A stretch of DNA of 63,069 bases, filler included, from Reclinomonas americana ATCC 50394 (lineage: Eukaryota), in assembly GCA_048213135.1 (NCBI GenBank). It is 3 parts of 3 records of this genome, joined end to end, with 100 filler letters (N's around TTAATTAATTAA, not from the genome) between each part and the next. Parts side by side here need not be neighbours in the genome. Positions count along the whole stretch, not along the records: positions 1 to 31,045 come from PS015225.1; 2 more parts are not named here. One strand, 5' to 3'. A model generated the notes under the pieces. The model ran no database searches. It saw nothing but the letters and a program-made list of their open reading frames with translations, and was not told the DNA's origin. This document shows, in pieces, positions 1,612 through 30,608 of the stretch (positions are counted from its first letter, which is position 1; the number at the start of each line of letters is the position of its first letter). A program made the position numbers and the translations under genes.

Positions 1612-1678
1612 ACACGCTTTACAGTTTACTTTACAACAACAATAACAACCACAACGCTCTGGCATTCGCGGCGCGCGA

Positions 1679-3594: not shown

Positions 3595-3650
3595 AGAGAG
3601 TGTCATGTGTCCTGTGCGCGCTCATCCCCGCGTCTGTCTTGTTTGCACGA

Positions 3651-5471
3651 ATGTGGTGGCTCGTGCGGAGGCTGTGGTGTGCGCCACACGCGGCCTCTGC
3701 ACTCGCCGGGGCCAGCGCAGTGGCGAGCGCGTCACTGATGAGCTCATCGTCATCTTCATCATCATGCGCAACAACAACAACAACACACGTAGAGAGACAG
3801 AGACACGAGGCACTTGCGCAGTGGTGGCGATGGCGAATGTGCTTACGAGCGCCTGCGCTGGCGTTTCTGAGTGCGGACGACGACACTGGGGGTGACAGTG
3901 TGAGGAATAGCAGTGCGTCTGACGCACAACATCATCAGCAGCATCATCCGCAGTCACGCGCATCTCGCGAGGAGAAGCGCTGGGAGGAGGATGAGAATGC
4001 CGCGGAGGATGATGATGGTGTGTGTCTTTGTGTCTTGTGTGTGCGCATCTCTCGCACATCACACAGAGTGATCTCAACAATGGATTCATTTTCCGTCAGT
4101 GTTGCTGATTCCACCGCGAACGACCACGCCGCCTCCGCCTCCGTCGCCCTCATTACCATCCTCGCCGTCGTCTTCATCTTCGCTTTCTCCTGCGGTGTCC
4201 ACGCGCCAGTCCGTGTTTACAGTGCCATTTGTGTCGTCTGGACTTCCGTGCCTGTACTCGCGTTTCGACAACGAGTTGGAGTCGAGCACTGGGCATGCGC
4301 GCTCGTCGTATGCGGCGGCCGCGCGTCGGTGGCGCTCCGAGAAGCGCGTGTTGTTTGACACGATTCGTGTGAGCCTGGTGGTCTTTATCGCCATGGTCTG
4401 CAAGTTGTACTTGCAAGTACTCAACGACACGCACTTTCACGGCTTGGAGAAGTTCTATCAGGCGCTGTATCATCGGCCAGAGGTGAGCGGTGTCTGCACG
4501 AGCAAGAAGAAAGCACAAGAGATGCAATCTCACGTTTTCTGATTTCTTGTTTTTCCCACAGGGACGCGGCTTGATCACTGTCAGCAACCACACGTCGTCG
4601 GTGGACGATCCAGCTGTGCTTGCGGCGCTCTCTCCGCTGCCGTACCTCATGGACTCGAAGCAGATCCGATGGGCCATGTGCGCCACCGATCGCTGTTTCA
4701 ACAAGTTGCGTGTGTGCTTCACGTCGGTGGGGTGTCTGTCTGGCTCATCCCTGGTGCGTGCGCAGGGGTGAGGCGCTGAGCAACTTGTTCCGCACGATCA
4801 AGGTGCTGCCGGTGGAGCGTGGCGCTGGACTTGAGCAAAAGGTTGGCACGCCCTGCCGAAGAATGTGTTGTTGCGCTCGCTGACCTTTATTGTTTTGGCT
4901 CCCGCAGTACATGTACCACGCCATCCACAAACTGGACAGTGGCGACTGGATTCACATCTTCCCCGAGGGCACTCGCCACCCAGACGGCCAGATGGGCTCC
5001 CTCAAGCCCGGTATTGGCAAGCTGATTCTCGGTGCCAAGATACCGCCAGTGGTGTTGCCCATCATTCACATCAACATGAACAAGGTGTGCATGTGTCAGC
5101 CGCCGCCACCGCTTCCTCCTGATGCCCCTCACCATTAGGTGTACTGCAGGTGATGCCCAAGGGCTCCAGCATTCCTGCCACTGGCAATCGAGTGACTATT
5201 GTCGTCGGCGATCCAATATACTTTGACGACGTGGTGGCCGAAATCAAGCACAAGGGCGAATCGTTGCGTTCCAACAATCGTGTGCCACCTCGGGAAAAAA
5301 TCGTGTCTCGATTGGCTCACTCGTGTTGCCGACAGTTTCCAACTGTACAACAAGATCATTGCGCGCCTGGCGCGGGAGATGAAAAAGTTGTACGAAATAG
5401 CCATGGAAAAACACCGCCTCTTTGAGCTGGGCCTTGACGACAGTGGTGGTCCCGTGCCTGCCGCCCCCTAG
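3651..5471 (+). CDS. TAZ: Tafazzin-family phospholipid (cardiolipin) transacylase, multi-exon
   Basis: GLITVSNHTSSVDDP (HxxxxD), IRWAMCATDRCF, KVLPVERGAGLEQ, WIHIFPEGT, LKPGIGKLI, PVVLPI; Arg/Ala/Ser-rich N-terminus consistent with mitochondrial targeting; GT-AG introns preserve the frame. Confidence 0.9.
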
Positions 5472-5884
5472 GTGATCCACCAATCCCAACTAGCTTCTAA
5501 TGTACATGCTGCTTGCAAGAAACATAAANNNNNNNNNNNNNNNNNNNNNNNNNNNNNNNNNNNNNNNNNNNNNNNNNNNNNNNNNNNNNNNNNNNNNNNN
5601 NNNNNNNNNNNNNNNNNNNNNNNNNNNNNNNNNNNNNNNNNNNNNNNNNNNNNNNNNNNNNNNNNNNNNNNNNNNNNNNNNNNNNNNNNNNNNNNNNNNN
5701 NNNNNNNNNNNNNNNNNNNNNNNNNNNNNNNNNNNNNNNNNNNNNNNNNNNNNNNNNNNNNNNNNNNNNNNNNNNNNNNNNNNNNNNNNNNNNNNNNNNN
5801 NNNNNNNNNNNNNNNNNNNNNNNNNNNNNNNNNNNNNNNNNNNNNNNNNNNNNNNNNNNNNNNNNNNNNNNNNNNNNNNNNNNN

Positions 5885-8800
5885 NCGTCTGCCGCTGCTG
5901 CAGCGGTGGGTGGTGCCGCTCCACTCGCCGCCGAGGCGGTGGCAGCGGATGAGGGAGACGAGGCGGACGTGTCAATGTGCGACGGCCGTCTGTGCGCGGA
6001 GAAGCAAGTGAGCAATGCGAACACCTGCAAAGAACGAAGAGGGATGAGCTCTCAGGCACGCACCGGACGGACGAGCTGCCGGTGCCAGCGTACGCCGAGA
6101 ACGAGACCGGCATGGACATGGCTGGCTTGGGCAAGTCGGGGATTTGCAGGCTCGTCAGCAGGTTGAGTTCGGGGTTGATGAAACGCTCGGTGCTGACGGC
6201 GCGTGCATTGCTACGCGGACGCGAGCGGGCGATATCTGGTGACGGCGCCCTGGCTGGCGTGGTGAAGAACACCGACGAGGGTTGCGTCGACGATGAATCG
6301 GTGGACGACAAGGCCGAGTCGGCCAGGGCGGACGTGAGGTCGGAGCTGCGTCGACGATGTGGATCCGCGGCGCCGCTGCCGGGTGGCGCGCGACCCGTCG
6401 ACGAACTGCGCTTGCGAGTGCCAGTGCCACTGCCTGCGCCGTTGCTGTGCAGCATCTGCAGCGCCGGAAGCACTGCGGCCGTCGACGATGTTCCCTGTGC
6501 TATGCTGCGGAACATGTTCAGCATGTGCATCCGAATGTCGTTCTGCAGCTCGCCCAGCAGGGTCGATGCAGTCAGCAGCGGTCCCGATCCGGCACTGTTC
6601 TGCTGCAGCAGCAGCGACAAGTCGAGACGGGCAGTGGCCGACGACGACTGCAACGACTCGATCGGGACGGGTGTCGCCGGCGCCTCGCCGCCGTCGGCCG
6701 ACGATGCCACACTCTTCGGACTCATGCTGTCGGTTTCCGACACGGAAATGCTGCCGGCGCGACTGTGCCGCCGTCGCAAGTGACGCCGGCTGGCCGCAAT
6801 AAGCACTGTCTCTGGGTCCACGGCGGGAGCGCTGAATGAACACACAGAGTGGATGAGTGAAGAGAAGAGAGAGGCGCCGAGGAGCGCAGAACAGAGAGAT
6901 TCAAAGAACCTCGGTGACTCGGCGCGCACAGGACGCGGTGGTGGACGGCGCGAGGCCGCGTCTGGTGGCGAGGTGGCAGAGAGGTGCAGTGGAGACTCCA
7001 GAGGTGGTGGCCGAGGTGGTGATGCCTCCAAGGCGGCCGCCGATAACACGGGTGACGACGACAGAGGAGCGGCATCGGTGACCGACGTGTCTTCCTCGGT
7101 CGTCAGCGACAGAGGCGACAGCATCCCGGCGGCCTCCATCGACGACTGCATCACCGGTGACGCTGGCTTCACAGATGGTGGCGAGTGGTGCGCAGCTGCA
7201 GGCGCACTTGACATCCCGTCTCCCTCTTCTGCATTCCTGTTCGGGGTCGTTGGTCTTGGCTGGTTGTCACTCGACGCGGCGGCGGCGGCGGCTGACTGCT
7301 CAGCAGCCTCGTTGCTAGCAGGCTCACTGGATTTCACCGGTGCTGGCGACTCCTCGTGCACCGCGGCGGCGTCGGCCGACTCCGTGGCGACCGCCTCCTG
7401 CGACTCCTCCTGCACGGTGACCTGCTCGAGCGACGGACGGCGGCGTGCGTTAAAGTTGAGCCGACTTTCGCGAGCGGACAGGAAGGTGGCCGCTTGCGAC
7501 GGCATCAAATGTTGCAGCATGGGAATGAGGCTCATGTCTGCATGCACCGAGAGTGAGACACATGTGCTATCACCGGTACTTTAACGGAAGTGCGCAACTG
7601 TGTGGATCGCCCAGCCACGACGCCGCAAAGTCCAAGTGCGGGCAATCGAAGAGTCTAAAGAACTCCTCCTCGTTGTTGTTCAAGATGCGGCACAACTGAT
7701 CGTCAATCGCCTCTAACCGGTCGTCGGCCGCCTGTCGCATAGTGACCAATTGCTGCTCAAGCTCTTGATACTGCGCGTTCGTGTGAGCACAGGGAAAGAG
7801 AGAGAGACAAGCTGCGGAGCCTCCACGTGCATCGCTCACCATGTCCAGTGGCATCTTCTTCAGGTCGTAGACCTCCTTGAATTGCAGATACTCGTTCTCG
7901 GCCGCCGCCAGTTCCTCGGCCAGATCGGGGCGAGGGGTGACGCACGCGTCCAGATTGGCACGCAGGGTGGCAATCTGCTCCTCGAACAATTCCGTGTGCG
8001 ACAGGAGCGGGGCCAGCAGCACTTGCAGATCCTCCACCACGATATCCATGAGCAGGAAGAGACAGCAGGTGCGCAGCAGCTTCTTCCGCTCGTCCACCAG
8101 TGCAATTGGTGACGAGAGACCTGCGACGAAGAGATGAGGACAACAAGATCGGTGACATCGCGCCAGCAGCCGGAAAAAGCACAATGACCTTGCGCGTGGA
8201 ACTGTGCCTGCATGACTTCTTGTGCGGACTTGAGCGTCAAGAACCAGTTCGTCGCCTCGCCAAGCTCGTCAAACACAAAATGTACACGTTCCCGAATGAA
8301 GCTGGCGCGGAAACTGAAAGCATTGGTCTTGTCGCTCTGTGCCGCCTTTTGGCCCGGCAGCAAGGCGGGAAGTGGCACGGATTGGACCTGGGCGATAAAA
8401 GGCGTATGACGAGTGAGTGAGGGGAGAAGAGGGGAGGAGGAGCGAGAGGAGCGAGAGGAGCGCACCTGGGAGTCAATCAAGTTCAAAAAGCCCAGGTAAT
8501 AAATCTGCGTCAAAAACAGCTTGCCGCGGTTCTGCGTATCGAGAGCCACCACCAACAGGTCGCTCATCATCAACACCGTGTAAAGACCGTCGACCAAGCC
8601 CGGCGGCTCACTCCGCATGCGCATTCGCTCGCCGTCAATCAAAATGTGCCGACCCGGCGACGCCAGCGCATCAAACTCCTCACTCATAAACTTGCGCTTG
8701 TAGGCCGAAAACTTTTGGTGGGTCTCGGCCTCGCGCTTCTTCTCGTTCAACAAAATGGTGACCTGTGTCGCGACCGATGGTGAGCACATCAACTTTTGCC

Positions 8801-9724
8801 TGCCCGGAACAATACCACTTCCACCACTCCACCTCTTCCAGCACTTTAAGCGCCTGCTTGACGTGCACAAAGTCGACGTACGCATCGGGAGTGTTGCGTA
8901 GCAAATCCTTCAGCAGCATCACATAACGCGGGATGCGCTGCACGGGCAGGATGAGCATGGAGGTCAGGTCGCGACCACGCATGCCGTCCGTCCTTTCGGC
9001 CTCCTTCACAAACGTGCGGAACGTGGCCTTTTTCGACTCCATCAACGACGTCAGCAGCTGCGACGCCTCGTCGTAGTTGTTAATGTACGTCGAGTACACG
9101 CGCAGTGACGGCGCCAGTTCCACAAACAGCTCGCCAATCGGTGTCGCCGAGCCCTTTTGCACGGCCTCGGTGTGCACCGTGTCGAGTGAGCGCAGGAATC
9201 GCCGATGAACCTCGCACAAGTCCATGACTGTGTGAACAGTGAGCGCCCAGCAGCAGCAGCAGCAGCAGCACCAGACGATTGAGAGCGAAAAAACCATTGG
9301 AAAAGAGTGTGGAGCATTGCTCCTCCGTGATGATCTGCTTCCGTGATCCCGCACGCGAGGCCAGCGGCTTGGCAAACGCCTAGCGAGAGATGACAGTGAG
9401 TGCTTGAGGAAGTGAGGAAGAGAGAAGAGGAGTGATCGCTCACACACACCTCCACAATCAGCTGCAGATCACTCTGATACGTGCGCTCAGTGGAGATGAT
9501 CTCCTTGACGATCCAGTGCCGTCGCGCAACCAACTTGCCCGTCGGTGACGAGCGGAACTGAGTGGCTGCGAGGGACACACACACACACTCAGTCACAACC
9601 CGGCACTTTCATCGATATGTGTGTGTTTTGATCATCACTCACCAAGCTCGCGAGCCTTCTTGCGCAACAGCAGAACATGTCGCGACCAGCGCGTCAGCAC
9701 GTCCAGTGCAGTATCCTCGTTCAT
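5885..9724 (-). CDS. RhoGEF (DH-PH) protein with coiled-coil and Ser/Pro-rich C-terminal region; 3' end lost in gap
   Basis: RHWIVKEIISTERTYQSDL, IGELFVELAPSLRVYSTYINNY, LTSMLILPVQRIPRYVMLLKDLLRNTP (DH domain); SPGRHILIDG...VLMMSDLLVVA...EATNWFLTL (PH domain). First exon MNEDTALDVL... Confidence 0.88.
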
Positions 9725-9978
9725 CTCGCTCGATATCACGCGCGCGAGAGAGAGCTGCTCGACTGCGATGGAGAGAGCAAGAGAGGGCCCTCAGATATTT
9801 CCGGCTACAGTCGAAAATGCGACTCAGGGGAGACGCAGTGCGTGAGTGTGCGTATGCGTGCGCTGTCTATGTCGTGGAGTGACGAGCGCGCGTGAGTGAG
9901 TGTGACAAGGCGGACGATGGATGATCGCGCCGGACCAACGGAATGGAGTGTGAAACCTTATTATCTACTCGGCAAAGA

Positions 9979-10908
9979 ATGTCACATCGACGCAAGCATC
10001 TGGAGATGGTGGAGGACAACGTGGTGGTCGATGAGCGGCGCGTGGTGGTGCAGGTGTGCTGGGCGCGCGCGCGCGTGCTCTATGTGCACATTCACATCAC
10101 TGACCTCACACGCACTCTCCTCGTCAGGTGTTGAGCTTGCGTGGCACCAACCAAGTGGAGGTGCGGCTTCCTCCTCCTCCTCCAGCACCAACATCATCGG
10201 AAGCAGCGGGAGATGAGAGTGGCAGTGTCAGAAGTGAGTCATTTCTGGTCATGTTTCCGGCCAAGTTCCGCAAGCTGATGTGGATCAAGCGAGGTAACCA
10301 GCAAGCACGCAAGCAAGACAGCGAAAGCGAGAGGTTGTCTTGCTTAATCTGTGAGAATGCGCGCGTGCAGGGTCGTATTTGGTGGTCGACATGGGTGGTG
10401 CGTCGGCAGAGGAGATTGGCGACGTCAAGCTGCGCGGTGTGGTGACGCACGTGCTGCGCGAGCCGCAGATTAGGGAGCTGAAGAAGAGTGGATTGTGGTT
10501 GCGTCCAAGCCGTGATCTCTGTGCATGACAGTGTGCGAGTTGGTGACTGAGGAGACCAAATGCAGGCCTGCGGCGTTTGAGGAGGCTGCGAGGAGGGCAC
10601 CGGGTGCTGCTGCGGGCTCTGCTTCTGCTGCTGCTTCAGCTGGTGATGAAGGCGAAGGTGGCGAAGACGACGATGAAGAAGAACGAGAGGCAGAAGGAAG
10701 CAGTGACAGTGACGACGACGATGACGACGATGACGATGACGAGGTGCACGGCCGACGAGGAAGGAGGCAACCTGTGGCCTTTGATCAGGACGAGGTTGCC
10801 AAGGCGACGGGAGCAGCGGCCGGAGAGGAGGAGGATGATGATGCATGGCGAAGAGCCGTATCAGCCGCCTCGCGCGTTGAACGCGATCCAGAAGACGAGT
10901 GGTTCTAA
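9979..10908 (+). CDS. EIF1AD: eIF1A-domain (OB-fold) RNA-binding protein with acidic tail
   Basis: MSHRRKH...VVQVLSLRGTNQVEV...FLVMFPAKFRKLMWIKRG SYLVVD...HVLREPQIRELKKSGLWPAAF follows the EIF1AD pattern (FLVSMPSKYRKNIWIKRG...WPEAF). Confidence 0.88.
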
Positions 10909-11070
10909 TGCACGCGAGTGAAGAAGGGCGCCACACGAAACACGAGCTGACGAGAGAGACAAGTCTAGTCGGTTGGCGCGAAATCTTCCGATCGTCCTGT
11001 GTCCGGTCGGTGAGAGTCGCCGCACCAACGCGCCTCCCAATCACGCTTTTCTTTGTTGTCTCTTTCGAGA

Positions 11071-13663
11071 ATGGACTCCTTCCTGTACCTCTCCTCGCCC
11101 ACACACAACGGCAGCAGCAGTCCCTCCTCACCGGCCGCAGGCAGCCGCCGAGTGCGCTCCGCCCTCGCCGATCGCGGCAACAAGAGCCCCGCCAACGCGC
11201 CTCGCCAACGCCGCTTTGACACGCTCGCGCGGCCTCCCCGCCAAGTCCGCTTCTCCAAACTCGCGCGCGAGCATCGTCGGCATCACGAGGACGTCATGTT
11301 GGTGCTCAAAAGCTCCGCGAGTCTCGCCTCGCCCTCGTCACTGGCATCGCCGACTGGCGGTGGTGCGGGCAGTGTCAGTGCGGCGTCGGCGTCTGTGGCC
11401 GCACGCTCAAAGAGTCAGCTGGTCTGTGTGTGTGTCTGTGTGTGAGCTGTGATTCGGTTGTCTCACTCTGTTGCTCGGCAGCTGTCGGGACGAGTGTCGG
11501 CACTGGCGGCGGCGCAAACGGCCATTGCAGCGTCGGGGGCACTTGGGCGACGGAATCCGGCATTGGCGCCTCGTATGGAGGTCTGTGTCTATGTGTTGTT
11601 GCAGCTGGTTTTGTCTCGGTGATTGGCTCACCTTGTTCTCTGTGGCCTTTTTAGCGCAAGTGGGAGTCTCTGATGCAGGAGCTGGATGCGGCCGAGGCGG
11701 CGGCTGATGATGCGCAGGCGCTGGGCGATGCGGAGGAGGCGCTGCAGTATCGGTTGCAGGCCAGTCGGATTGCGGAGCGGTTGTATGAGTCCACCGATGC
11801 GGCGTATGTGGTTCGTTTTCCGTGCGATGTCCGACCGATGAGGGATGGTCTTGTCTCACGGTTGCTGTGTCGTGTAGGATGTGTTGCAACGATTGGCTAG
11901 GTGTGTGTGCTTTGTGACTGCGTTGATTGCTTTGTTGTTGTTGCTCATTGCTTTCCACCAGTGCTCATGCCGAAAACGGCGATGTTGCGAATGCTCGGCG
12001 ACTGCTCGTGCGGTGTCAGGAGCTGCTTGGTTCGTACCTCTTCGCTCTTGATTTGCTTGGTCGTTAAGCATCTGACGCTCGGCAATGTGTTGCAACCCCG
12101 CAGGCAGTCAAGACGATGTGCTCCTCGCCGAGGTGCTGTTTGCGTACGGAAACACACTGCTCAACGAGGACGGCAAGGAGCGCGAGGCTCTTAAGTGGTA
12201 CGAGCGCAGCTTGGCGCTGCTCGGCACGGCTGCAGCACAGGTGCGAGTGGGGGCAGTGCGCGTCAGATTGGTCTTGGAGAAACGAGCTGAATGTCGGTTT
12301 GCGCAGCCCGTCTTTTTCGACAGCCAGGCACGCTCGCTGCCCAAGTTTGAGGATCGCAACCTGGCCACACACGCCACTCAGTTCTCGGTGCTGATCAACA
12401 CTGGCCTGGCGCACTACAGACTATCGGTTCGTGATTGGTCGTCGACGAGTTCATCACGTGCAATGTGGCTCACCTTCGCGCCCCGCACAGGAACTGGATG
12501 CGGCGCTCACAGCGTACAAGCACGCACTGCGTGTGTGCCAGGACGTTCTTGGCACAGATGGTACCGCACTGGCGTGCGCCTGCACCAATGTGGGTGTGGT
12601 GTACCACGCACAAGGAGACTACCGTGCCGCCATTCGCATGTACAAGCGGGCGCTGCGTGTGCACGAGAAGGGCCCGGCTGTCGCCACGCCCACCTCGTGG
12701 GACGCAGATGAGACCACCGCTCCGCTGATGCACGACGACCCCAACACTTTTGTGCTGAAGCACAATGTCGCCAAGTGCTACCTCGCCCTGCACAAGTTTG
12801 CCGAGGCCGAAAAATACTACTCATGGGTCCGCAAGGTTGGTGGTGTGACTGCTTCATGAACTTCGTGTTTGCCATGTCGCTGAGAGCCTTGCTGGCCGTG
12901 CAGGTGTTGGAGCAGAGTCACGCGAATGGAATGGATGACGATTTGCACGAGTCTACTTTGCGGCTGGCCGAGGTGATGCATGATCTGGGAGTGTGTGCGT
13001 CGGGGTTGCGCAAGTACGAAACCGCGGCTCGGTGCGTGGAATGCAAGTGCGACGCAAGTGTTCGCTTGTCTCACTCTGCGTTTTCCGACAGCTTCCTTCG
13101 CAAGGCCTACCTGATGCGCAAGTCGCTGGTGGGCGACGAGGACGACGAGACGCAGGTGAGCGACGGAATGCGTGCCACCCACCACGTCGACTCTGTTCGT
13201 CCTCACTCAGTTGTTGGTGCAGGCCACATTGGCAAAACTGCGAAAAACGTGCACGCGACTGGAGCAACTGGGCGTCGATGTCTCGTGGTTGCAAGTGCTG
13301 CTGAATGGTTTGTCGTCTCTTCGTCTTCTCACTCTGTATCTCAGAGAAGCTCACTCTCTCGCCCCACACGCAGAGTCGTTCGATCTCGACACAGCAGCGG
13401 CCGCCATGGACAGCCCGGTCGACGGCAGTGCCTCGCCTAGCGGCCTCACTGCCGAGAGACTGGCCGCCTTCCGCCACGGCCTCTCCTCACCACTTCGCGA
13501 TCGCCGCGTCGAAGATCTCCGTCGGTGCGTCCCCCAGCTTCCTACGTGTCACCTCACGCCCCATCTCACCCCCCATTCCGCGCATCGCAGCGTATCGATG
13601 ATCTCCACCACCACAGTAGGCAGCGCCGGCACCGTGTCCACCTGGAGCGGTGGCTCACCATGA
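11071..13663 (+). CDS. Tetratricopeptide-repeat protein (kinesin-light-chain-type TPRs), multi-exon
   Basis: EALKWYERSLAL, AALTAYKHALRVCQDVLG, ACACTNVGVVYHAQGDYRAAIRMYKRALRV, HNVAKCYLALHKFAEAEKYY, AEVMHDLGV; the exact 3' end is uncertain (next to a gap). Confidence 0.8.
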
Positions 13664-14011
13664 GCNNNNNNNNNNNNNNNNNNNNNNNNNNNNNNNNNNN
13701 NNNNNNNNNNNNNNNNNNNNNNNNNNNNNNNNNNNNNNNNNNNNNNNNNNNNNNNNNNNNNNNNNNNNNNNNNNNNNNNNNNNNNNNNNNNNNNNNNNNN
13801 NNNNNNNNNNNNNNNNNNNNNNNNNNNNNNNNNNNNGGAAATGGGAGGGTGGAAAGAAAACCAGAATGTACAACTGTGTAACTTGGAAAGAGAGAAGGCA
13901 CTGATCAGTCTCTTGACCCTCTCGACGGCGATCGACGTCGAACGGACGAGAGTTGTCAAGCTGGTCCTGTCGGAGCTCTTTTCATCCTCTCTTCTCCTCT
14001 CCAGAGCGCCA

Positions 14012-14414
14012 ATGAACTTCATCGCTCGCCTGTCACAGCGCACACAGTCACTCTTTGCGGCCGGAGCTGCTGCAGTGGTGGGCGTCGCGGCAACAGTGGC
14101 TGGAACGCGCGCAGATGAACATGCCACGTCAGCAACACCAGTGACCGAGCAGCATCCGACCACTGCAGGAGAGGCCGCCAAGGCTGGTGTGTGTGTGAGA
14201 GATTGTGTGTGTAGTGTCTGTTGCTCACTCGTGCTGTGCAGCAACCCCGCCTCCACAGACTGTGAGCAACATTCCGTTCTCTCCGTACTTTGTCGCCGAT
14301 GTGGCGGAAGCGGTGAGTGCGAGCTCTCACAGACACGCACTTCTCTCTCTTTCCTTCTCTCTCTCTCTCACTGTGTATGCGACAGACACTGNNNNNNNNN
14401 NNNNNNNNNNNNAC

Positions 14415-14486
<72 letters not shown>

Positions 14487-15759
14487 GCCTTGCTTGTGCT
14501 CCAGTCCGCTGACTGCGTGTTTGACAGGCTCGGGTTTCCTCATTGACCCTCGCGGCATCATCCTCACCAATTGTCACGTGGCAAAGAACCCGGGCAGTGG
14601 TCGCGGCAAGGTCTTGCAAGAGTCGCCTTTCTCCTCTGCATAGTCTCTGACCTCTTGCATGCCACAGCTCGACGTGACGCTCTCCGATGGTCGCCAGTTC
14701 GACGCGCGTGTGGATTCGTACGACGAGACCATTGACATTGCGGTGTTGCGCATCACCAATCCGCCGCCCAACGGCGACCCGTTCCCGTACCTCGAGCTCG
14801 GCAGCTCGGCTGATGTGCGTATTGGCGAGTTTGTGATTGCGCTGGGGTCGCCGCAAGGCCTGCAGAACACAGTGACCAGTGGTGAGTATGTTCCTTGCGT
14901 TCTCGTGTGTCGTCCAGCAGCTGAAGTGTTGGGGGATACACGTGCGCAGGCATCATCTCCAACCGGTCGCGACACGCGAGTGAACTCGGTATGACCGACC
15001 GCCGTGTCAGCTACCTGCAGACCGACGCTCCGATCTCGTTTGGCAACTCGGGCGGGCCGCTCGTGAACATGCGCGGACAGGTGATTGGAATCAACACGGT
15101 CGTGGTGGTTTCGCTGGGACAGGTATGCGTGTGTGTGGTCTTGTGTGGTGTTCCGTGAGGCGTGCAAGGGATTCACGGTTAATTACAGTTGGGATTCGCC
15201 ATTCCCGCCGATGTTGCCAAGGATGCCATGCGTCAGCTGGACTTGCACGGCAAGGTTCGCCGCCCGTACATTGGCGTCGTGCTGCTGCCGTTGACCACGG
15301 AGCGCGCGCTGTTCGACTCCAAGCGCACATTCGGCTCCAAGATCGCCGACGATATTCGTAATGGTTTGCGTGGTTTCCGTGTTGCTTGCATTGGTCGTCG
15401 TCGTCACCAACGCGAGAGAGATGTGTGTATGTGTGTGTGCAGGAGTGCTGGTGGTCGACGTGGTGGGTGCTCCCGCGAAGCGTGCCGGCCTGATGGCTGG
15501 TGACGTGGTGACTGCAGTGGACGGCAAGCCAGCGTATACCACTCGTGATGTTGCGTACTGCCCCCTTGCTGCAGCGTCGTCGTACGCATCTCCACTCACC
15601 AACTCGTCGTCGCGGTACACGTAGATTCTGGAGAGGGTACAAAGCGTCGGTCAAGAGATGCGTTTCGATGTGCGCCGAGGAACACAGGCACTCCAGTTGA
15701 CAGTCACTGTCGACGAGGAGCCGCCGGCGCCAGTACCGCAACGCAGTCGCAGAAGGTGA
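14012..15759 (+). CDS. HTRA2: HtrA/DegP-family serine protease with PDZ domain (HtrA2/Omi-like)
   Basis: [18 protein letters not shown] (His), DIAVLRI (Asp), [33 protein letters not shown] (Ser); RPYIGV...[28 protein letters not shown] (PDZ); N-terminal targeting/TM-like segment. Confidence 0.9.
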
Positions 15760-15833
15760 GCCGCCACCCAACCAGCAACATACTCACAAAACAGATGCCC
15801 TCGCGTATTCACTGTTTCGTGTGATTTCTGCTC

Positions 15834-17384
15834 TCAGACGCGGCTAGGGCCCTTCATGCCAGATCGAACCATGTAACTCTCCTGCTTCAGCAATTCAGCC
15901 TCGCGCTTGTCGTTGGTGAAGACCGAGCTCATCACCGACGAGTGCGTAATCTCCCGCGCTCTGTACGCACGCACGTCCATGCATTGATTTAGTGGTCGTC
16001 GGAGAATCGTTGGCGTGAGAACCAAGTGGGTGTGCCAAATAAAATGCACCCCTCCTATCTCCACCCGCACAACACTCACCTCTCGCTTGCCACTCGAGCC
16101 ATATCGCGCGCCATGTGCATTGTGACGGTCTCCGCAGACCGCGCCGCCGGCTTGCGCTGCTGCTGCTTCTTCTTCTCCTTTTCTGCCCTCCGCGCGGCCT
16201 TCTTGCGCGCCCGCTCGGCCTCGTCCTCGTCGTCGCCATGTCGCGACCGCTTACGCTCCCTGCGCTTCGCCTCCTTGTCCCGCTCCTCGGACGACGTCGA
16301 GTCCTCCACCACCATGCCGGCGGCCGCCACACCGTCCTCCTCCGGCACCTCACTCTTGCGCGACTTTCTGCTGCCCTCACCGTCTGCGGCAATGGCGGCA
16401 GCTGCAGCGGCCGCGGCCGCACCAGCACCACTTGCTGTCGTCGTCGTCGTCGTCGATGACGACGACGATGACGACGATGATGACAATGTCGGCGCAATCC
16501 CATCCTGCGGTGGATTCAACTCCACCACATCGGCACGAGTAAACTCCTTGGAGCACACGGGGCACGGCGACGGCACATCGCCACTGGCCAATCCCATCTC
16601 GCGCAAGCACTTTTCCGACAGCACATGGCCGCACGTGCGAATCACCGAGAAGCTGCGACGACAGCAATGAGACCAGGGTGCGAGGTCACATGCACATGGA
16701 CCTTGCGTGATCGCACTCACCGAAACGTGCCAGTGACCTCCAGCATCGTCATCGGGCAGACGAAGCGCGCCTGATCGTGGAAGGCCTCGCTGGGCTTGCA
16801 GTCGTCGCTGAAGGCGGGGTTGGGCGTGAAGTGGCAATCGATCACATCCTGCGAGAGAGGGATGAGAGAGACGCAAAAGAGAGAACGCACACGCACACAC
16901 ACACACGCACCTTCAGCTTCTTGATGTGACGAAAGGGAGGTGGGTTATCCTTGGCCAGCAGCATGCGAATGACCGAGTCCTTGTTGAAAATGTTGCCAAC
17001 GCGATCACACACAATCGGATCTCTGTTGAGAGCACAAGAGAGAAAGCGAGGAGACAGAGAGCGTGAGAAGGCAACAAGAAGAAAGACAAAGGAAGAGAAG
17101 CGCGCAACTGCAGTGGCTCTTTGCTCAATGCGCAGACACTCCAACGTGTTGTTGCCGCGACTGTGCGATCCTGTGATGAAACACGAAACGCAGAATGAGT
17201 AACACACGCACAGAGGGGAGGAGAGAGAGAGACACACACACACACACCATGCGCTCAGGGGCTTTTCGCTGCGACACAATGAACTTGCGCGCATTCGCAA
17301 TGCTTCCTGTTGCGCGCAGTGAGCGTGTGTGAGAGGGAGTAGAAAGGAGAACACACACACGCACACACCTCCATCGCATCCCAT
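15834..17384 (-). CDS. RTF2: Replication termination factor 2 (RING-like)
   Basis: Diagnostic start MGCDGG-SI; WSVCALSKEPL, IVCDRVGNIFNKDSVI, FVCPMT, CGHVLSEKCL...CPVC, Lys-rich C-terminus. Confidence 0.9.
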
Positions 17385-17475
17385 GAGAGCTCTCTTCCTC
17401 TCTCACACAAAACACACACAACGACAATGTGACGGGACTCAAGGACACACACTGACCTTCACTTTGCGACAGACG

Positions 17476-20400
17476 ATGACAGAGTGCGCGTTCAGCACAG
17501 CCGACACAGGTGGCGACACCCCCCTTCTCTCTCACTCTCTCAGCAAGTCACTCACTCTCTCTGTGTGCGATCGCAGGCTGGTTGATCCTGGGATCCGCAC
17601 TGGTGCGCTCCCTTCTCTCTTCTCTCTCTCTGTCTATGCCTCCCACTCCTCGTCACTGACTCTATGTGTTCGCGCGCGTGTGTGTGTGATCAGGTCATGC
17701 TGCAGTCACCGGCGTTGCGCGCGCTCCCTCTCCCTCGAATGCATGTGCGCATCAGTTTGCTAATGCAATTGTCACTGCGCAGAACCGGTCTGCTGCAGGC
17801 CGGCATCATTCGTCGCATGAACTCGTTGCGTAAGAGAGAGAGAGGCAGAGAGATGTGGTGTATGCAGCCTCTCTCTCACGCTGTGGCTCAACTCGTGTGC
17901 GCAGACTGAACATGCTCATGCAATCGATTGCTGGCATGATCCTGGGCGCAATCATGTGGATCACGTTGCGTGCCCTTTATCTCTCGCAGTCGTCTTTTGC
18001 GTTTGTCGATCTCATCGCGTGTGTCATCATACAGCATCGGGTATTCGTTGACTTGTTTCGTTGGCTGCCTCGAGCTGTGTCGCTCTCGTTCTGTGTACTG
18101 ATGATGGGCGATCGCAGTTGGACCCGACCATGGAGGCGTCATTGGCGATTTTTCGCACTTTTTCTTGCATGGCACTGGCGATTGCCACTGGGCTGGTTCG
18201 CCGTCTTTGGCAAGGACTCTCTGTCGCCACTGAATGCTCATCCTCCTTCTCCCGGTCACAGCACCGACGGTGCCGACCATGGCGCTGGTCAATCTGCAGA
18301 TGCAGTTCGCCGCTGTGGCTCCTGTGGTGTGCACGGGCGCGTGGGTACGTGCGCGCACCTCTCGCCATCTCCTTGCAAGAGTGTCTAATGATCGTTGCCA
18401 GGCTGAGAAACTGCACTTTTCCGCGTTCTGTCTGTTCTGCTGCATGTGGGCGCTGGTGGTGTATTACCCAGTGGCGCACTGGGTGTGGGGTGGAGTTACG
18501 AGTGTGGAACATGTTTGAGGAGGGGGATGGTGTGTGTGAGGTGCTGACTGTGTGTGTATGTTTTGTCTGCGATAATCAGGGTTTTCTGCAAACGTGAGTC
18601 ACTGTGCTTTCCACCGCACTCACGCTTCATGCTCACTGACGCGGCGTGATTGTGCACTGCAGGTGGGGCGTTCTCGACTTTGGCGGTGGTCTACCGTTGC
18701 GTAGCAAGTCACTCAACGAGCTGCTGTCTCCTCATGCGTCACTGATAGCTGTGTGTGGATTAACACAGGATTCACACGACCACCGGCACTGCGGCATTCG
18801 TTGTGTCTTTGGTGCTTGAACGCCGCCCGGAGCTGGACGAGTACAACCCTGTCCGTGAGTCTTCTTTCATTGACTGCACCGCTGCTGTGTCCGTGAGGCT
18901 CATCGTCTGTGTGTGTGTCTCCTGGACAGCGCACAACATTCCGGTCTGTGCCTTGTGCTCCGCTTTCCATTGATTGTCTCTCCTCCCTCTAATTTGATTG
19001 CTCTGTGTTCCTGCAGCTGGCTGGTGCGATCTTTCGTGTCATTCACTCGCCCTTCTGTGCTCTCGCTCTCTCACCATGCTGCATGCAGTGATTGGCGGTG
19101 CCTTGACGTGGTCGACTTGGTTTGTGTTCAACGGAGGTTTGTGTGCGTGAGAATGCGCTTTGCATTTGGTCCCCCTCCTCATCACAACACGCAGTTTCGG
19201 GCTACCGCTCGAATACGGTGTCGGTGTTTGCCGGTGCGTTGTTGCCTGATTTGCACTCCCGATCTTCGCGTGCCTCACTGCATGTGCAGTGGCCAACACG
19301 CACATTTCGGCATGTGTCGGTGGCCTCATGTGGCTAATCCTCGCATTCATCCGGTACGCGTGCGCGTCACCGCTTGTGTATGCTTTTGCGAGATCTGTGC
19401 TGAAGTCTCTCCGTCCCACGCAGCACTGACTTTTTCCACATTGTGGAGATTCTGAATGGTGCTCGCCAAGATCTTGTTTGCGCATGTGCATGTGCAGCGC
19501 GAAGGCGCCAACCATTCTTCTTTCTTCTCCACGCAGGTGCACTGGCAGGCCTGGCTGGCGTGACACCGGCGTGTGGCTACGTTACTGTCGGTGAGTTCAG
19601 CAATGGTTGTGCGCGTGTCAATAATCTCCTGCTTTGCTCAATTCCACACAGCGGTGGCCATGATAACTGGCGTGTTTGCCGGCATTGCCGCGTACTTTTC
19701 CGTGTACTTCCTGCGATACAGGTTCCATCAAGTGCATCGTGTTTGCCACTCTAGTGTTTCTGTGCATTTGACATTGTCTGCGCAGAGTGCACGTGGACGA
19801 TGCTCTGGACGTGACGTCGCTGCAGGTTCGTCTCAAGTGCTCCGTGTGTGTGAGTGATTATGGCAACCTGAATCGGTATGCTGCAACAGGCGACTCCCGG
19901 GTTCATCGGGTCGGTGCTCGCCATTGGCTTGTTTGCAACCAAGGACGTGAATCCCGACCTCGAACTCGAGGGAGCATTCTACAGTGGCGACTTTACGCTG
20001 CTCTACAAGCAGGTTCCGCAGCCTCACCACAGTCCACTTGCTTTTTGATGCGTTCACTCACCCCCCGTGGCGCGCAGTTTGTGGGCGTCATGGTCGTGCT
20101 GGTGTGGACGGCCGTGTGGACATACGTGGTGATGAAATTCGTCGTGTGGTTGATCCCGCAGCCATCAAAGCAGGAGATGATTGTCGGTCTCGACAAGCAG
20201 GAGTCTGGCGAGACAGCCTACGATGAAGAGGTGCCGCGTGTCCATGCCCCCGTTAGTGTGACTGACCGATGCTGACATGGTGGCGAACAGGGGCACGTGG
20301 ACATTGGTGAGCAAAGGCAGGAGCTTTCGGATGCGATCGAAGCCGGTAACTTGGACATGGTGGTCAGCCTCATCAAGCGCGGAGTCAATCCTCTGATCGG

Positions 20401-22239
20401 CGACTACGACGGCAACACGGTGCGTCACTGCAATCGCAGATCAATCGATCTTCTGTGTGCTGATTGTGTGACTCTGCGAGGAAGGCATATCATGTGGCGG
20501 CCAAGTTTGGTTATCAGCACATTATCGAGTACTTGCTGACGCTGCCGACGGCCAACATCAATGTGGTCGACCGAACGGGCACCACCCCGCTGACTGTGGC
20601 GCTCAATGCTGGCAACGAGACGCTGGCCGACTGGATGTTGCATAATGGTGCCAGCACGGAGACCTTCAAGTTGGTGAGTGTGCACGCACGCACTGTTAGC
20701 CATCGCGTGTTTCTAGGTGATAACTATTCGATCGCACAGGGAGAGAAGCTGTGCGAAGCCGGTGCTGCTGGTGATGTCGACACGCTGCGGCATTACTCAC
20801 GGACCAGTGCCTTGTTTGGTGAGTATCCATCAATCTTCACTGCAGTGCGGCGAAGTTCTGTCGCTCATCGCTGTCACGCAGTACCGGATCCTGATGGAAG
20901 GTGATTTCGCAGCTATTGCCAGTTGCATGCAGGTGATGAAACTCATGTCTGTGTGATTGTCACTCTGGTGATTTGTGCAGAACTGCGCTACATCTGGCGG
21001 CCGCCAATGTTGCGTCGAGAGTGTGATGTCATCCTCGTGGACGATAGTGATCTCATGATTGCTTTTCACAGGGACACCGAGAGTGCGTCGAGTTTCTGCT
21101 GGAAGGTGAGTGCCACAGCTCGTGTGAAGTTTGTCTCTGTCCTTCTCAACGCGCCCTCTTTACCGCAGCGGGTGTGCCGCCCAACGTGCGCGATCGGTGG
21201 GGAGGCACACCGAGTGACGATGCACGCCGGCGTCAGCATTTGGATATTGTGCAGCTGCTGGCGAGTTCAACGATGCGCATCGCCGACGATTTCTGCCATG
21301 CGGCCGCCGTCGGTAGGCAGTGGTGATACTCGGGGGTGGCGTCGTTCCCACAATCACTCACCACATGACTCGCAGGCGACATGGAGGGTGTGGAGCGATT
21401 TGTCATGAGTGGCGTCGACGTGTTGCGTTCTTTTCTCGTGTGGAGTGCGAGCTTGTGGAAGTTTCTCATCATTTTCTTCTCCTGCAGCAACACTCGTGAT
21501 GCCGATGGTCGCACTGCATTGCATCATGCTGCCTTGTGAGTGTTGCTGTATTCTACCAGAATAGTGTCGTTTTGCTCACTCGCTGTTGTGCATGTCGACA
21601 GCCTGGGTTGCCTTCCTGGTTTGCTAGTCGCCACTTGCCAGTGTTTGGCTGCACACAGCTGTTCTCATTCCACATGCCCCACACAGTGGTCAAGTACTTG
21701 CTCAAGTATGCCGACCCAAATCCGCGCGACCGCTGGGGCAACACGCCACTCAACGACGCCGTTCGCCAGTCCCATGGAAACGTGGCCGATGTTGCGTTGT
21801 TGTAGCATTTGCTCTCATAGTAGTGGTATTGACGCTTTGTGCCATGCACAGGCACTGCGAGCGCACGAAGGCAAACTCGGGTTTGAGAGTGAACTCGCCC
21901 TGCGCAACATTCACGACGATGGTTCGCCGAGTCTCTTCAGTGCTGCGCCATGATGGATGCTGACTGCCTGCGCACACACAGAGTTCACGGAAGACGAGCA
22001 CACGGACAGCTCGGTCATGGAGGTCCGGCTGGTGACGCCGAGCGGCAAGGAGAGCAAGTACAAGACGTTTGGCATGGTGCGTGTAACTGGCTGCAGAGCC
22101 AAATGTGATTGAGACTCCCTCAACTCACATGCGCGCACAGGTGGCCATCAATCCGCGCATCTTGGAAAAGATGAAGCAGAGCAAGCAGCGCAAGAAACAG
22201 CGCAAGCCGGATGGTGAAGAACACGAGATGTTCAGCTGA
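17476..22239 (+). CDS. Ammonium transporter (Amt/Mep family) fused to C-terminal ankyrin repeats; many small exons
   Basis: Amt motifs: DTGWLILGSALVMLQSPA, GIIRRMNSLNMLMQ, QMQFA, AEK, YYPVAHWVWGGG, LDFGGGLPIH, HNIP, WFVFNG, GALAGLAGVTPACGYV, VDDALDV, GLDKQESGETAY. An in-frame 60-nt intron (20231-20290) joins these to ankyrin exons (DYDGNTAYHVAA, DGRTALHLAA, DRWGNTPLNDA). Confidence 0.88.
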
Positions 22240-22500
22240 GAGTCGCGAACAGCCACACACACACGCGCGCGCCCATTGTGCGCAAGAGTGGTGGCCGTGG
22301 CCACGCAGCATCATCGTCGGTGTCACCCGTGTGACACACGACACAGCTTCGACACAAGAGCCTGAAGGTCGATCCGTACGCTGCCGAGTGCCTCAACAAA
22401 TGAAAGCACTCTCCTTGCATTTGGTACACTCCCACACACGGCTACACACGGAAAAAACTACACGCACAACTCGTGGCGCGACGGCAGCTTCCTCCTCTCC

Positions 22501-23749
22501 TCACTCGCTGATCGCGTCACGGCGATTGGGCGTCTCGCGCGGACACACCATCATCACCGTCACGTTATCAAATGAGGTCCGTGCACGCAGTGCCGTGTCG
22601 GCCAGCGCGTAGGCCAGACCATCATCGATTTCTCCGCCCGACACCGCCGGTGCGCTGCGCGACAAGTGTCGCTCCATGATGCGAATCACCTGCGCTTCGT
22701 CGAGAGTCTCCCAGAAACCGGAGGAGGCCACCAGGAAGCACACGTCGAGCGGCGTCACAGCAAACTCGACCACATCGGGCTCCGGAATGACAAATGGTCG
22801 CAAGATGTGCATGCCGATGCAGCGCGAGGTCGCCAGGACTCCCTGCGCGTGTCCGACTGGCGAGTTGCCGAGGCCAAACACATTCTCTCGCTTCTTCTTC
22901 TCCACAAATCCCCCGTGAATGCCCGTGATTCGGCCGTGCTCGGCGGGATCGTCGGGCTTGTGTGGTTGGTTGAGGAACACGAGTTCCAACTGCGACGAGT
23001 CGGCCGACTTGAGCCGTATCACAGCCGCTCGACTGTGTGTGTGTCACACACAGACAGAGAGAGAGTGAGTGACGAAAGAGCTGTCGGCGATGCTGGGACA
23101 GACAACACACCTGTCGCCCGTGTTGGCCACAAAGTACCGCGAGCGATCCTGTGTGAACGCCAGCACGCAGGCCGAGGAGCCGACATCGGTGCCGCGTGGT
23201 CTGCTGCCGCTCGGTGCGTTGGCTGGTGGTGGAGCCTTGGCCCTGTAGTGCGCCACAAAGTTCTCGTCGAGTCGCATAATGGCGCGATACAGCGTTTCAC
23301 TACGACGATGATGAGCAGCAGACGCACAACACACACGACGATACACAACGCACCCGACACCGAGCGTGGCGGCTTGATCGAGTGAATCCGCCAGATGTCC
23401 CTGAAAGTTGTCGCGCAGGAACGACGAGCACAAGTCGCCCAGGTGGCCATCAAACACTCCATACACATCTGCACCGACGGTCAATGAAGGAGAGGGAGAG
23501 ATTCGCATTTACATCGCGGAAAGAAAAATGGCGACGAACCAACTCCCGAGAGCGTAAAGTGCACCCACGTGTCTTGCTGTGTGCCGTGCTTCTTGTCGTA
23601 CAATGACGCAAACTGATTGCCGTTCACCGGCGCCAGCGGCCCTCTTGACTGAGGAATCATTATTTATTGTGAGGGTTCAGAGAACCGGGCGAGCTACACG
23701 CACACACACACAGTCCGACACGCACCTGGTTGCTGTTCTGTTGACCCAT
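22501..23749 (-). CDS. PP2C/PPM-family phosphatase-like protein, predicted N-myristoylated, several catalytic Asp substitutions
   Basis: MGQQNS start; YGVFDGH, GSSACV, FVANTGDSRA, HKPDDPAEHGRI, LATSRCIG, VIPEPDV, FLVASSGFWE, SFDNVTVMMV. Confidence 0.85.
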
Positions 23750-24330
23750 GAGTGAGGTGGGAGCCTCGACGCGCGCGCGTAATGCGACAACAAAGGTGCG
23801 TCACGGGACTTGTCGATGACGTCGAGCCTTGGAACTTCGTTGGCATCGGGAATCGCAGCAACCCTCTGTTGCGGTTACGTGGGCAACACGACAAGTGATG
23901 TGCGCATTAGTAGTACGCGTCACCGAAACCGATCCGCGAGCGACGCACAGCGCGCACGGATCTCTTGCGCCACGTGTGCAATTATTATTCCAATCTCCAT
24001 CGCCCTTCTGCAGACAAGTCTTCGTTTTCAAGCTTTCATTGGAGAGAGCGCGTGCTGGAGGGAGGCGCAGGTGATAGGCGCAGACCCACGACATACGTGA
24101 GTGCAACGGACTGCATCCAGTATCACCGCGCCTGCACACCTCCCAGCGCGCGCCTCTGTCGCTCGGGTTGGTCGCGAGACCAGAATTGTAAGTATGTAAA
24201 GACCAGCGACCCGTGTCCAAGTCGTGCAGTGTGGTCAGGTGGTCACACTTGTGGGTCGCATTGCCGCATCGATGGATGCGGCACCCAGCATGCATAGAGG
24301 GTCCATGTGGACCCTCCCCGGTATTGCGAC

Positions 24331-25995
24331 TCATCGGGCTGACACGGGCCGGCGACGGCGAGGGGCAGCAGACCGCGTTGGCGGCATGCCTGGTGGAGCT
24401 GGTGGTGGTGGTGGTGGTGGTGGCGGAGGAGGAGGAGCAGGCGCCAGATCGACGTCGTCTGCAGTGTCATTGTCGACGGACATGGACACTGGTGGACCGA
24501 TCGACCTCGCCAGCGTCTCGGCGCGGATGGCCTTCAGTTCGAGACGGCGCCGTGCTGCAGAGTCGGCACGCTCGCGCCGCACGGCCGCACTCTCCTCCAA
24601 TCGCTGCAACTTGCCCATGGGCGCGGCCTCCACCGATGTACACACGGCCTTGTTGCGGGCAATAAAATCGAGGCGGTGAGTCGACTGACGGCGCGTGGCG
24701 TACGCGTCGGTGCGCATGAACAATTCACGCCGTTGCTCCTCATTCTGTGAGTACTCACGGAGGCGCCGCTGCACGTGCTCCTGGATCTGTGCCTGCGTCA
24801 GTGTCCGGCCAAAGATGCCACTGTTGGCCGGCTTTGTGTACAGCCGAGGCGACACGGCGCAGCGCGGCGTCTTGCGCGGCGGTGAATCGTGGTCCTGGCC
24901 GCCGCCGCCTCCTCCTCGGTACGTGGGAGCCGATGCAGGCCGTTTCCGCCGCCGACTCGCACCGCCACGCCTCGCATCTGGTGATGGAGAAGCACAAAAA
25001 GAGGGGAGAGAGAAAAACACACAAATTTTTACTCACTGGGCAGCACGCGATGCAGCAGCAGCAGCAGCGGCAGAAGCAGGATTGCGTCTTCTACGCCTCT
25101 TCTTCTTCTGTACGCCCTCACCAGCAGAACCGCCTCCAGCCACTCCCGACGGACCGCTCTCGTCCTGGTGATATTGCTGACGCGCCGAGTCTGCCACACA
25201 AATGCAATGAGAATACAGAAGCGGGGTGGGTAACAGTGCTGCTGCTGTGATGGCCACGCACCCAGAGTATGCGCAATCTCGCCAAACAGAGCCGCGAATG
25301 CCGCCGGCCCGTCCTCCTGCCCGCTACCACCACCGCCACCGCTGCCGCCGCCGCCGCCACCGCCATAGCCAGACGATGAACCCATGACATGCGCACTGGC
25401 CGGCCGCTTGCCTCGAGCACTGCGTGCCGACGGCGGTGCGACCAAGGCCGCAGCCCCAGGCACCACATTCTGGGTGATGAACCTGTGACATGAAACGAAC
25501 CCGCTGTGAGCCAGAAGCATCTTCTCTCACGATCAAGTGTGTGACAACGCACGTGAATCCGCTCTCCAGCTGCGAGTTGAGTCGCGCAGTGAGGCCACCA
25601 ATGGCCTCGGTCTCAGTCCGCGGAATCGGCAAGATACTGCGCTCGATCATCAGTCAACATCCACCTCGTATTCATCATCGCAAACACATGTCAACCGCTC
25701 ACCTCAGCGACGAGAGCGCTCGCTCGCCCGTCGACACTGGATCCGTGTACGCACGCAGTCGCGGCGTCTTTGGTCGTCCATGCTTGCGCAGCTCATTCAC
25801 CAGCGGCTCACTGTGACGCACGAATGAGATGAAGAGCAGACAACACGAAGGAACACAAGAGCGCAACATTCTGCGCTCCAGGTTGCGCGACGAGGCCAAC
25901 TGCAACGGCCCACGCGCCGATGCCGGACGCGATTGCGACAGCAGCAACTGCCGCTGCTGCTCTGTGAGCTCCAGTGGCGGCACCTCACTGTCCCA
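24331..25995 (-). CDS. Hypothetical Arg/Ser/Pro-rich coiled-coil protein with repeated RPASA motifs (5' end in gap)
   Basis: Consecutive minus-strand coding-like segments separated by GT-AG introns; motifs SRPASAR, KRPASAH, KRPASAP, RPVSAR; helical segment QEHVQRRLREYSQNEEQRRELF. Confidence 0.55.
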
Positions 25996-26054
25996 AACAC
26001 ATGAGCAAATCACAATCACACACGCTTTCTCTCGNNNNNNNNNNNNNNNNNNNN

Positions 26055-29418: not shown

Positions 29419-30608
29419 TGAGTAGTAATCGCGACAAAGAAAGAGAGGGAGAGTGTGAGAACGCAAAGGGAGGAGAGAGGACAGAAGAGAGGAGTGAACA
29501 GGGTGAAAAGAGAGACAGACAGACNNNNNNNNNNNNNNNNNNNNNNNNNNNNNNNNNNNNNNNNNNNNNNNNNNNNNNNNNNNNNNNNNNNNNNNNNNNN
29601 NNNNNNNNNNNNNNNNNNNNNNNNNNNNNNNNNNNNNNNNNNNNNNNNNNNNNNNNNNNNNNNNNNNNNNNNNNNNNNNNNNNNNNNNNNNNNNNNNNNN
29701 NNNNNNNNNNNNNNNNNNNNNNNNNNNNNNNNNNNNNNNNNNNNNNNNNNNNNNNNNNNNNNNNNNNNNNNNNNNNNNNNNNNNNNNNNNNNNNNNNNNN
29801 NNNNNNNNNNNNNNNNNNNNNNNNNNNNNNNNNNNNNNNNNNNNNNNNNNNNNNNNNNNNNNNNNNNNNNNNNNNNNNNNNNNNNNNNNNNNNNNNNNNN
29901 NNNNNNNNNNNNNNNNNNNNNNNNNNNNNNNNNNNNNNNNNNNNNNNNNNNNNNNNNNNNNNNNNNNNNNNNNNNNNNNNNNNNNNNNNNNNNNNNNNNN
30001 NNNNNNNNNNNNNNNNNNNNNNNNNNNNNNNNNNNNNNNNNNNNNNNNNNNNNNNNNNNNNNNNNNNNNNNNNNNNNNNNNNNNNNNNNNNNNNNNNNNN
30101 NNNNNNNNNNNNNNNNNNNNNNNNNNNNNNNNNNNNNNNNNNNNNNNNNNNNNNNNNNNNNNNNNNNNNNNNNNNNNNNNNNNNNNNNNNNNNNNNNNNN
30201 NNNNNNNNNNNNNNNNNNNNNNNNNNNNNNNNNNNNNNNNNNNNNNNNNNNNNNNNNNNNNNNNNNNNNNNNNNNNNNNNNNNNNNNNNNNNNNNNNNNN
30301 NNNNNNNNNNNNNNNNNNNNNNNNNNNNNNNNNNNNNNNNNNNNNNNNNNNNNNNNNNNNNNNNNNNNNNNNNNNNNNNNNNNNNNNNNNNNGAGAGAGA
30401 GAGAGACGAGAGGGAGAAACAACGATGCAGAATAACAAGAGCAGAAACATAAGAAGAAAAAGGAAGGAGGGGAGAGCGAGGAGAGACGAAGGAGGGAAGG
30501 GAGTAGATTGACAAGCACAGGCATACAACATACAAGCACACACCCCTCAATGATCGCCAATCACGCAGGACAACTCTTTTAATTGTCAAGTTGTGTTTTT
30601 TCGCGCTC

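Follow-up and report, generated by a model that had tools for sequence, protein, structure and literature searches.

The window analysed here, a 63,069-nucleotide stretch of Reclinomonas americana ATCC 50394 DNA (assembly GCA_048213135.1), carries on its plus strand, at 17476..22239, a gene that joins an apparently complete ammonium transporter (Amt) domain to an array of ankyrin repeats. The coding region runs from the ATG at 17476-17478 to the TGA at 22237-22239, exactly the interval proposed in a first-pass annotation of this DNA, and comprises 37 exons, 36 GT-AG introns, and 782 codons plus the stop; the model built from these coordinates has no internal stop. All the 36 donors are GT, and the acceptors are CAG in 35 cases and AAG in one (exon 25). 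Introns range from 53 to 91 nt (median 65.5) and exons from 14 to 189 nt (median 48), with seven micro-exons of only 14-20 nt, namely exons 3, 6, 10, 13, 14, 27, and 33, and the packing of 36 introns into 4.76 kb represents an extreme intron density. When the introns were compared with one another no copies were found, thus no introner-like repeats. The combination of 37 exons, canonical splice sites throughout, a narrow intron length range, and 782 stop-free codons is far beyond what chance could produce.

The window, a draft scaffold with gaps, contains a total of 6584 N and 19 runs longer than 5 N (e.g., 5529-5885, 29525-30392, and 40128-41041), and the low-GC bins of its composition profile correspond to these gaps. 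No N run falls within 14412-26035, so the gene sits in unbroken sequence. Some details of the model admit alternatives. An in-frame upstream ATG at 17383-17385, with no stop before 17476, would add 31 N-terminal residues if it were the start; this ATG lies in CA-repeat-rich sequence. The AAG acceptor of exon 25 is backed by the spacing of the ankyrin repeats. Neither these two choices nor the treatment of exon 14 and of the micro-exons, discussed below, affects the junction between the two parts of the gene or the residues considered here. Extending exon 5 to 18040 and placing a 25-nt intron at 17965-17989 were both rejected, as either the frame or an Amt motif is broken, and the motif ..WITIGYSLTFG.. 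is recovered when exon 6 is 20 nt long; the retention of intron 3 (69 nt) in frame was rejected as well.

Exons 1-23 (17476..20230, plus strand; aa 1-416) encode an Amt/Mep-type ammonium transporter domain ending in ..GLDKQESGETAYDEE, on the basis of Pfam (PF00909), tblastn, and a collinear alignment. The Pfam scan covered 19 stop-to-stop frames and found the Ammonium_transp family on three of them, the best being 18234-18518 with 30.5 bits against a cut-off of 23.2 (the other two had E values of about 0.004); the scores of these Amt fragments are low because the exons are short. As a comparison set we used 51 metagenome loci, which had been retrieved with the protein fragment P0002, the closest relative found (49% identity over exon 22). 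These loci are intronless, prokaryote-type Amt genes, and 45 of them are full-length. In tblastn the spliced Amt part matched all the 51 loci, and the best match covered aa 2-415 without a break (422 columns, 35.5% identity, E 2e-74). The MAFFT alignment with the 45 full-length Amts was collinear, the sole notable gap being a 4-residue insertion at exon 14, and the C-terminal motif GLDKQESGETAY is present in the spliced Amt part. These results bear out the full Amt domain with a C-terminal GLD..E.GE.AY tail described in the first-pass annotation, and exons 1-23 are best described as a predicted complete transporter module in which every helix of the 11-helix core is present. The PDB sequence searches made with two of the frames gave, among the matches listed, only Amt-family chains (E. 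coli AmtB, archaeal Amt, Mep2, and 644-661 aa chains named 'Ammonium transporter') and no Rh-named chain. The Amt module thus appears to be AmtB/Mep-like and not Rh-like.

The second part of the gene, exons 24-35 (20291..21921, plus strand), encodes a short linker and nine ankyrin repeats, identified with the Pfam families Ank_2, Ank, and Ank_4 and with a triplet alignment. Exon 24 opens with the linker, of about six residues (GHVDIG), which leads directly into repeat 1. Ankyrin families were found on four of the 19 frames: frame 20464-20904 reached 33.2 against a cut-off of 27.3 for Ank_2 (PF12796), 31 against 21.1 for Ank (PF00023), and 26.6 against 22.7 for Ank_4 (PF13637), and the other three frames were weaker. 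The nine repeats, of 29-35 residues each (aa ~423-716), align as three triplets in which the first repeat follows the pattern L..A...G[DN], the second D.DG.TA.H.AA, and the third DR.G.TP...A, in agreement with the roughly nine repeats and three triplets, with their motifs, that had been proposed for this region. Among the PDB searches with the ankyrin exons, designed ankyrin proteins occupied nearly all of the best 60 rows, and the natural structures 1n11 and 7tw3 appeared in two rows of one search. The Pfam scan of the frames downstream of the Amt part gave ankyrin families only and no enzymatic transducer, and no glutaminase or asparaginase domain was found within the gene (19 frames). As the first-pass annotation proposed, the array may resemble the ankyrin repeats of plant Shaker K+ channels, glutaminase, and ASPG-type asparaginase, with a three-repeat unit that starts with L..AA..GD and has DRWG.TP in its third repeat. 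Exons 36-37 (21982..22239, plus strand) complete the spliced model with a tail that is first acidic and then strongly basic (aa 719-782), followed by the stop; a total of 66 residues follow the repeats, and the basic stretch includes ..KQSKQRKKQRK...

The two parts meet at intron 23 (20231..20290, plus strand), a 60-nt phase 0 intron that begins with GTGCCG and ends with CAG. Both the end of exon 23 at 20230 and the start of exon 24 at 20291 are in phase 0. The intron contains an in-frame TGA (20273-20275), so only splicing, and not read-through, joins the halves. It also carries two CTGAC motifs, and at the DNA level this agrees with the phase 0, in-frame splice and the branch-like motif already reported for the interval. 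In length and ends, it resembles the other 35 introns of the gene. The Amt and ankyrin halves would therefore most plausibly be spliced together in vivo, and we regard them as probably forming one gene.

Next to the features just described, the Amt module carries three changes at conserved positions, which the first-pass annotation had not reported. At the end of TM1, Gln32 (codon CAG, 17796..17798, plus strand) occupies a column that is Tyr in 45/45 aligned Amts. The first pore histidine is kept as His170 (CAC, 18773..18775, plus strand; His in 45/45), and the position of the second is occupied by Gln324 (CAG, 19823..19825, plus strand; His in 45/45), encoded by the last codon of exon 21. The gene therefore lacks the twin-His pair. 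In addition, the C-terminal HGE motif is SGE, with Ser408 (TCT, 20204..20206, plus strand) in a column that is His in 44 of the 45 Amts. The outer binding site, the Phe gate, and the conserved Asp are all retained: Trp150 of the outer site, Phe109 and Phe221 of the gate, and Asp162 stand in columns that are invariant among the 45 Amts (Trp, Phe, Phe, and Asp, respectively), and Ser225 of the outer site is aligned to Ser in three of the four homologues displayed and in the majority line.

The change at the second pore histidine recurs in P0002, which has the same Gln in ..DDALDVFSLQAVPG.. (..DVFSLQAVPG..), where the window has ..DDALDVTSLQ|ATPG.., the bar marking the end of exon 21. Since P0002 reads without interruption across this point, Gln324 is real and shared, and not a splice-site error. 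As P0002 is an independent fragment, this suggests a lineage with the replacement and not a one-off. In AmtB, the corresponding pore residues H168 and H318 are highly conserved across the family (PMC10794816). Single His-to-Ala variants of AmtB keep growth on ammonium and lose methylamine transport (PMC3647058); in vitro, single-His variants change from transporter-like to channel-like behaviour, with K+ passing too, and the double-His variant binds ammonium without transporting it (PMC7447429). In Mep2, the second His forms a hydrogen bond with a Tyr at the C-terminal end of TM1 (PMC10794816), and judging from its position Gln32 would stand in the place of this Tyr. Together with the Tyr-to-Gln and SGE changes, the replaced second pore histidine makes the pore non-canonical, and this fits an altered or sensory role.

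Amt family proteins are membrane trimers with the C-terminal region on the cytoplasmic face, and ankyrin repeats bind proteins. The reading that best accounts for the locus, and that we consider likely as far as the gene and the general logic are concerned, is a single gene whose product forms an Amt trimer, altered in its pore and equipped with ankyrin arms for docking. Removal of the 36 short introns would yield a 782-residue protein composed of the Amt module, the linker, the nine ankyrin repeats, and the basic tail. The Amt module would trimerise and, given a trimer with cytoplasmic C-termini, three ankyrin solenoids would hang under the membrane and could serve as protein-docking arms. 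With the outer ammonium-recruiting features kept, ammonium would presumably bind, and most likely it would still pass, in a channel-like manner that does not use the proton relay of the histidines; such a passage is what the replacement of both the second His and the TM1 Tyr by Gln leads us to expect. The arms could then tether or couple the protein to a partner, for which the cytoskeleton, a membrane domain, a regulator, or a nitrogen enzyme are candidates, and the arrangement would be a covalent version of the animal ankyrin-Rh transporter complexes. The first-pass annotation had proposed an ammonium sensor or scaffold, a transceptor recruiting regulators or ammonium-producing enzymes. Its single gene, in which a complete Amt is followed by some nine ankyrin repeats in triplets, holds at the DNA level, but the protein has no enzymatic transducer and lacks the His pair that the known Amt receptors retain, and the recruitment of such partners is pure conjecture.

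Several observations weigh against an Amt trimer with docking arms. Of the 141 columns that are at least 90% conserved among the 45 Amts, 61 have a different residue in the model, and the loss of transport is therefore a real possibility; as the 45 Amts are a narrow metagenome group, some of these conserved columns are group-specific. The splice that joins the halves is a prediction from the genomic DNA. The pore-His variants described in the literature consulted (PMC7447429, PMC3647058, and PMC11152129) are Ala and Phe, and none with Gln was found there. At the level of the model, exon 14 (19 nt) adds four residues that are absent from the homologues, and a single 141-nt intron skipping it is a possible alternative; for some of the 14-20 nt micro-exons, the frame and homology are the sole guide. 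Support for a conserved fusion was not found: the full HMMER search with frame 19772-20275, which includes exon 23, found no full-length relative among 1.84 billion representatives, and its six hits were four short Amt C-terminal fragments and two spurious matches. Finally, the fragment P0005 runs about 80 residues past the Amt end without ankyrin repeats, and P0002 ends 7 residues past it. A weak hint of a relative that may continue past the Amt end comes from the fragment P0006 (55 aa), whose first residue lies at most a few residues from where exon 23 starts and whose homology ends just after ..AYDDEE, with a Val codon, as expected from an intron at the same place.

The halves could also be two genes, with the Amt ending at the TGA within 20231-20290, a separate ankyrin gene just downstream, and the in-frame join either coincidental or a rare read-through isoform. 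Retention of intron 23 would indeed give an Amt of normal length, 431 residues, ending 15 codons past ..AYDEE, and 44 of the 45 Amts end within 1-16 residues of that C-terminal motif. However, the distance from the TGA to the acceptor is 15 nt, which cannot accommodate a 3' end together with a promoter or new start, and the whole gap of 60 nt between the halves is too short for a second gene; the start and stop of the gene, by comparison, lie about 560 and 260 nt from the neighbouring gene pieces. In the ankyrin frame the first Met (aa 438) already falls within repeat 1, no separate 5' exon precedes the ankyrin part, and the interval has the length, ends, and CTGAC motifs of the introns of this gene. 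We consider two genes very unlikely. Even less credible, to the point of being highly improbable, is a decaying or mis-assembled locus, whether a pseudogene or unrelated pieces that were joined in the assembly. The draft nature of the assembly and the strong divergence of the Amt would be in keeping with it, but the gene contains no gap, its 37 exons and 782 codons are open with intact splice sites, and its unusual Gln is common to the independent P0002.

A different question is whether the Amt module conducts at all. It could be a non-transporting receptor that only binds ammonium, its C-terminal movement altering what the ankyrin repeats bind, so that a scaffold would replace the enzyme in a eukaryotic counterpart of the bacterial Amt receptors. 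The replacement of the second pore His and the TM1 Tyr by Gln, the SGE motif, and the divergence at 61 of the 141 conserved columns all speak for it, the known Amt receptors have C-terminal fusions (PMC11152129), and binding without transport has a precedent in the double-His variant of AmtB (PMC7447429). Against this, the known Amt receptors described in PMC11152129 retain the two histidines and are locked off when these are mutated; here a single His is changed, and single-His variants of AmtB still conduct (PMC3647058 and PMC7447429). Moreover, ankyrin repeats have no catalytic output. On this balance, we regard a receptor without transport as unlikely, and as the main rival of the preferred reading. 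The same holds for a wider proposal, which we put forward with considerable doubt: that the gene represents a new eukaryotic class of ammonium signalling, in which an Amt without the relay histidine (Gln324, with the TM1 Tyr changed to Gln) would act as a receptor or as a poorly selective cation channel, and the movement of its C-terminus would be read by its own nine-repeat platform.

The preferred reading, a single chain with a modified Amt pore and ankyrin arms, can be set beside three known systems. With the AmtB/Mep-type transporters (E. coli AmtB and fungal Mep2), the protein shares a full-length collinear module, the GLD...GE.AY C-terminal region, the outer Trp/Ser site, the Phe gate, the Asp, and the first pore His. 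It differs from them in having Gln at the second pore His and at the TM1 Tyr and SGE in place of HGE, and in a C-terminal extension of 366 residues, whereas 44 of the 45 compared Amts end within 16 residues. The bacterial ammonium receptors Ks-Amt5, an Amt with a histidine kinase, and Sd-Amt1, an Amt with HAMP and diguanylate cyclase domains, likewise have a large cytoplasmic part fused to the C-terminus of an Amt module (PMC11152129), and the present protein may be, as they are, a repurposed Amt. These are the published cases that we found, in line with the statement of the first-pass annotation that Amt fusions to signalling domains are mainly bacterial. In contrast to the gene in the window, these receptors keep the His pair, and the double His-to-Phe variant is locked off (PMC11152129); here an array of protein-binding repeats, and not an enzyme, is fused to the Amt, and the host is a eukaryote with introns in the gene. 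A lateral ammonium pocket and a blocked exit are further characteristics of the two receptors.

The third comparison is with animals, in which the Rh ammonium transporters (RhAG/Rh and RhBG) are bound through their C-terminal tails by ankyrin-R or ankyrin-G, with effects on targeting, stability, and activity (PMC9467607). In both cases, a member of the Amt/Mep/Rh superfamily has, or here would have, a functional coupling to ankyrin repeats through the C-terminus on its cytoplasmic side, affecting its anchoring and activity. However, in animals the ankyrin is a separate protein that binds the tail of the transporter, whereas here the repeats are within the transporter chain and must bind something else.

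The clearest cases of transporters that have become receptors are Amts with a fused output domain, and those that we found to have been studied are bacterial. In the window, the fused cytoplasmic module is a eukaryotic ankyrin scaffold, and it is accompanied by a natural change of the twin-His pair. If the reading proposed here is true, the gene would be a natural experiment on the role of the second histidine in selectivity and in the proton relay. The ankyrin arms would also offer a way to find the partners in the cytoplasm with which a protist or alga transports or senses ammonium, and the single chain would mirror the animal ankyrin-Rh complexes.

We looked for the same architecture elsewhere, and limited searches found neither a protein with it nor a paper describing an Amt-ankyrin fusion; the architecture may nevertheless be present in databases, unstudied. 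Neither exon 23 nor frame 18234-18518 gave a match in word-based protein searches, and none came from a metagenome scan with alignment A3 or a search of viral contigs with P0002; for P0002, the ESM Atlas returned only plain Amt clusters. None of the 51 metagenome Amt loci contained a match to the ankyrin part or to the tail; among 126 stored proteins the ankyrin part had no match (best E 0.48), and neither had the tail. A metagenome Amt query gave 251 long Amts (722-2060 aa), and no ankyrin Pfam family was present among the 120 listed, whose partners included glutamine amidotransferase, histidine-kinase ATPase, TPR, and porin domains.

Three other Amt sequences are of note. In one metagenome locus (L009, Amt match at 1105-2316), the frame continues for 124 residues past the Amt end, and the extension may be a fused small regulatory domain. 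A predicted metagenome protein of 937 aa (P0034) has Amt, EF-hand_14, and Glutaminase domains; its linking and terminal stretches appear to be low-complexity or off-frame translation, and it may represent two adjacent genes merged. A third protein, of 827 aa and from a eukaryote protein set (P0106), consists of an Amt that is prolonged at its C-terminus by about 415 residues; this extension is charged, with much Glu, Leu, Gln, and Arg, and Pfam gave no match for it.

Around the gene, the upstream neighbour is a piece of an Rtf2 RING-finger gene on the minus strand (16076..16912; PF04641, E 9.8e-13), about 560 nt from the gene start. Downstream, a piece of a protein phosphatase 2C gene (22501..23043, minus strand; PF00481, E 3.3e-17) is convergent with it and begins about 260 nt after the stop. 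No second copy of the Amt or ankyrin half was found elsewhere in the window, and its Rfam and tRNA scans gave no match. A diaminopimelate epimerase domain lies at 2461-3594 on the plus strand (Pfam E 3.1e-37), in a frame that is open for 377 codons, unlike the intron-dense Amt gene, and it points to a eukaryote, such as a plant, alga, or protist, with the diaminopimelate route to lysine.

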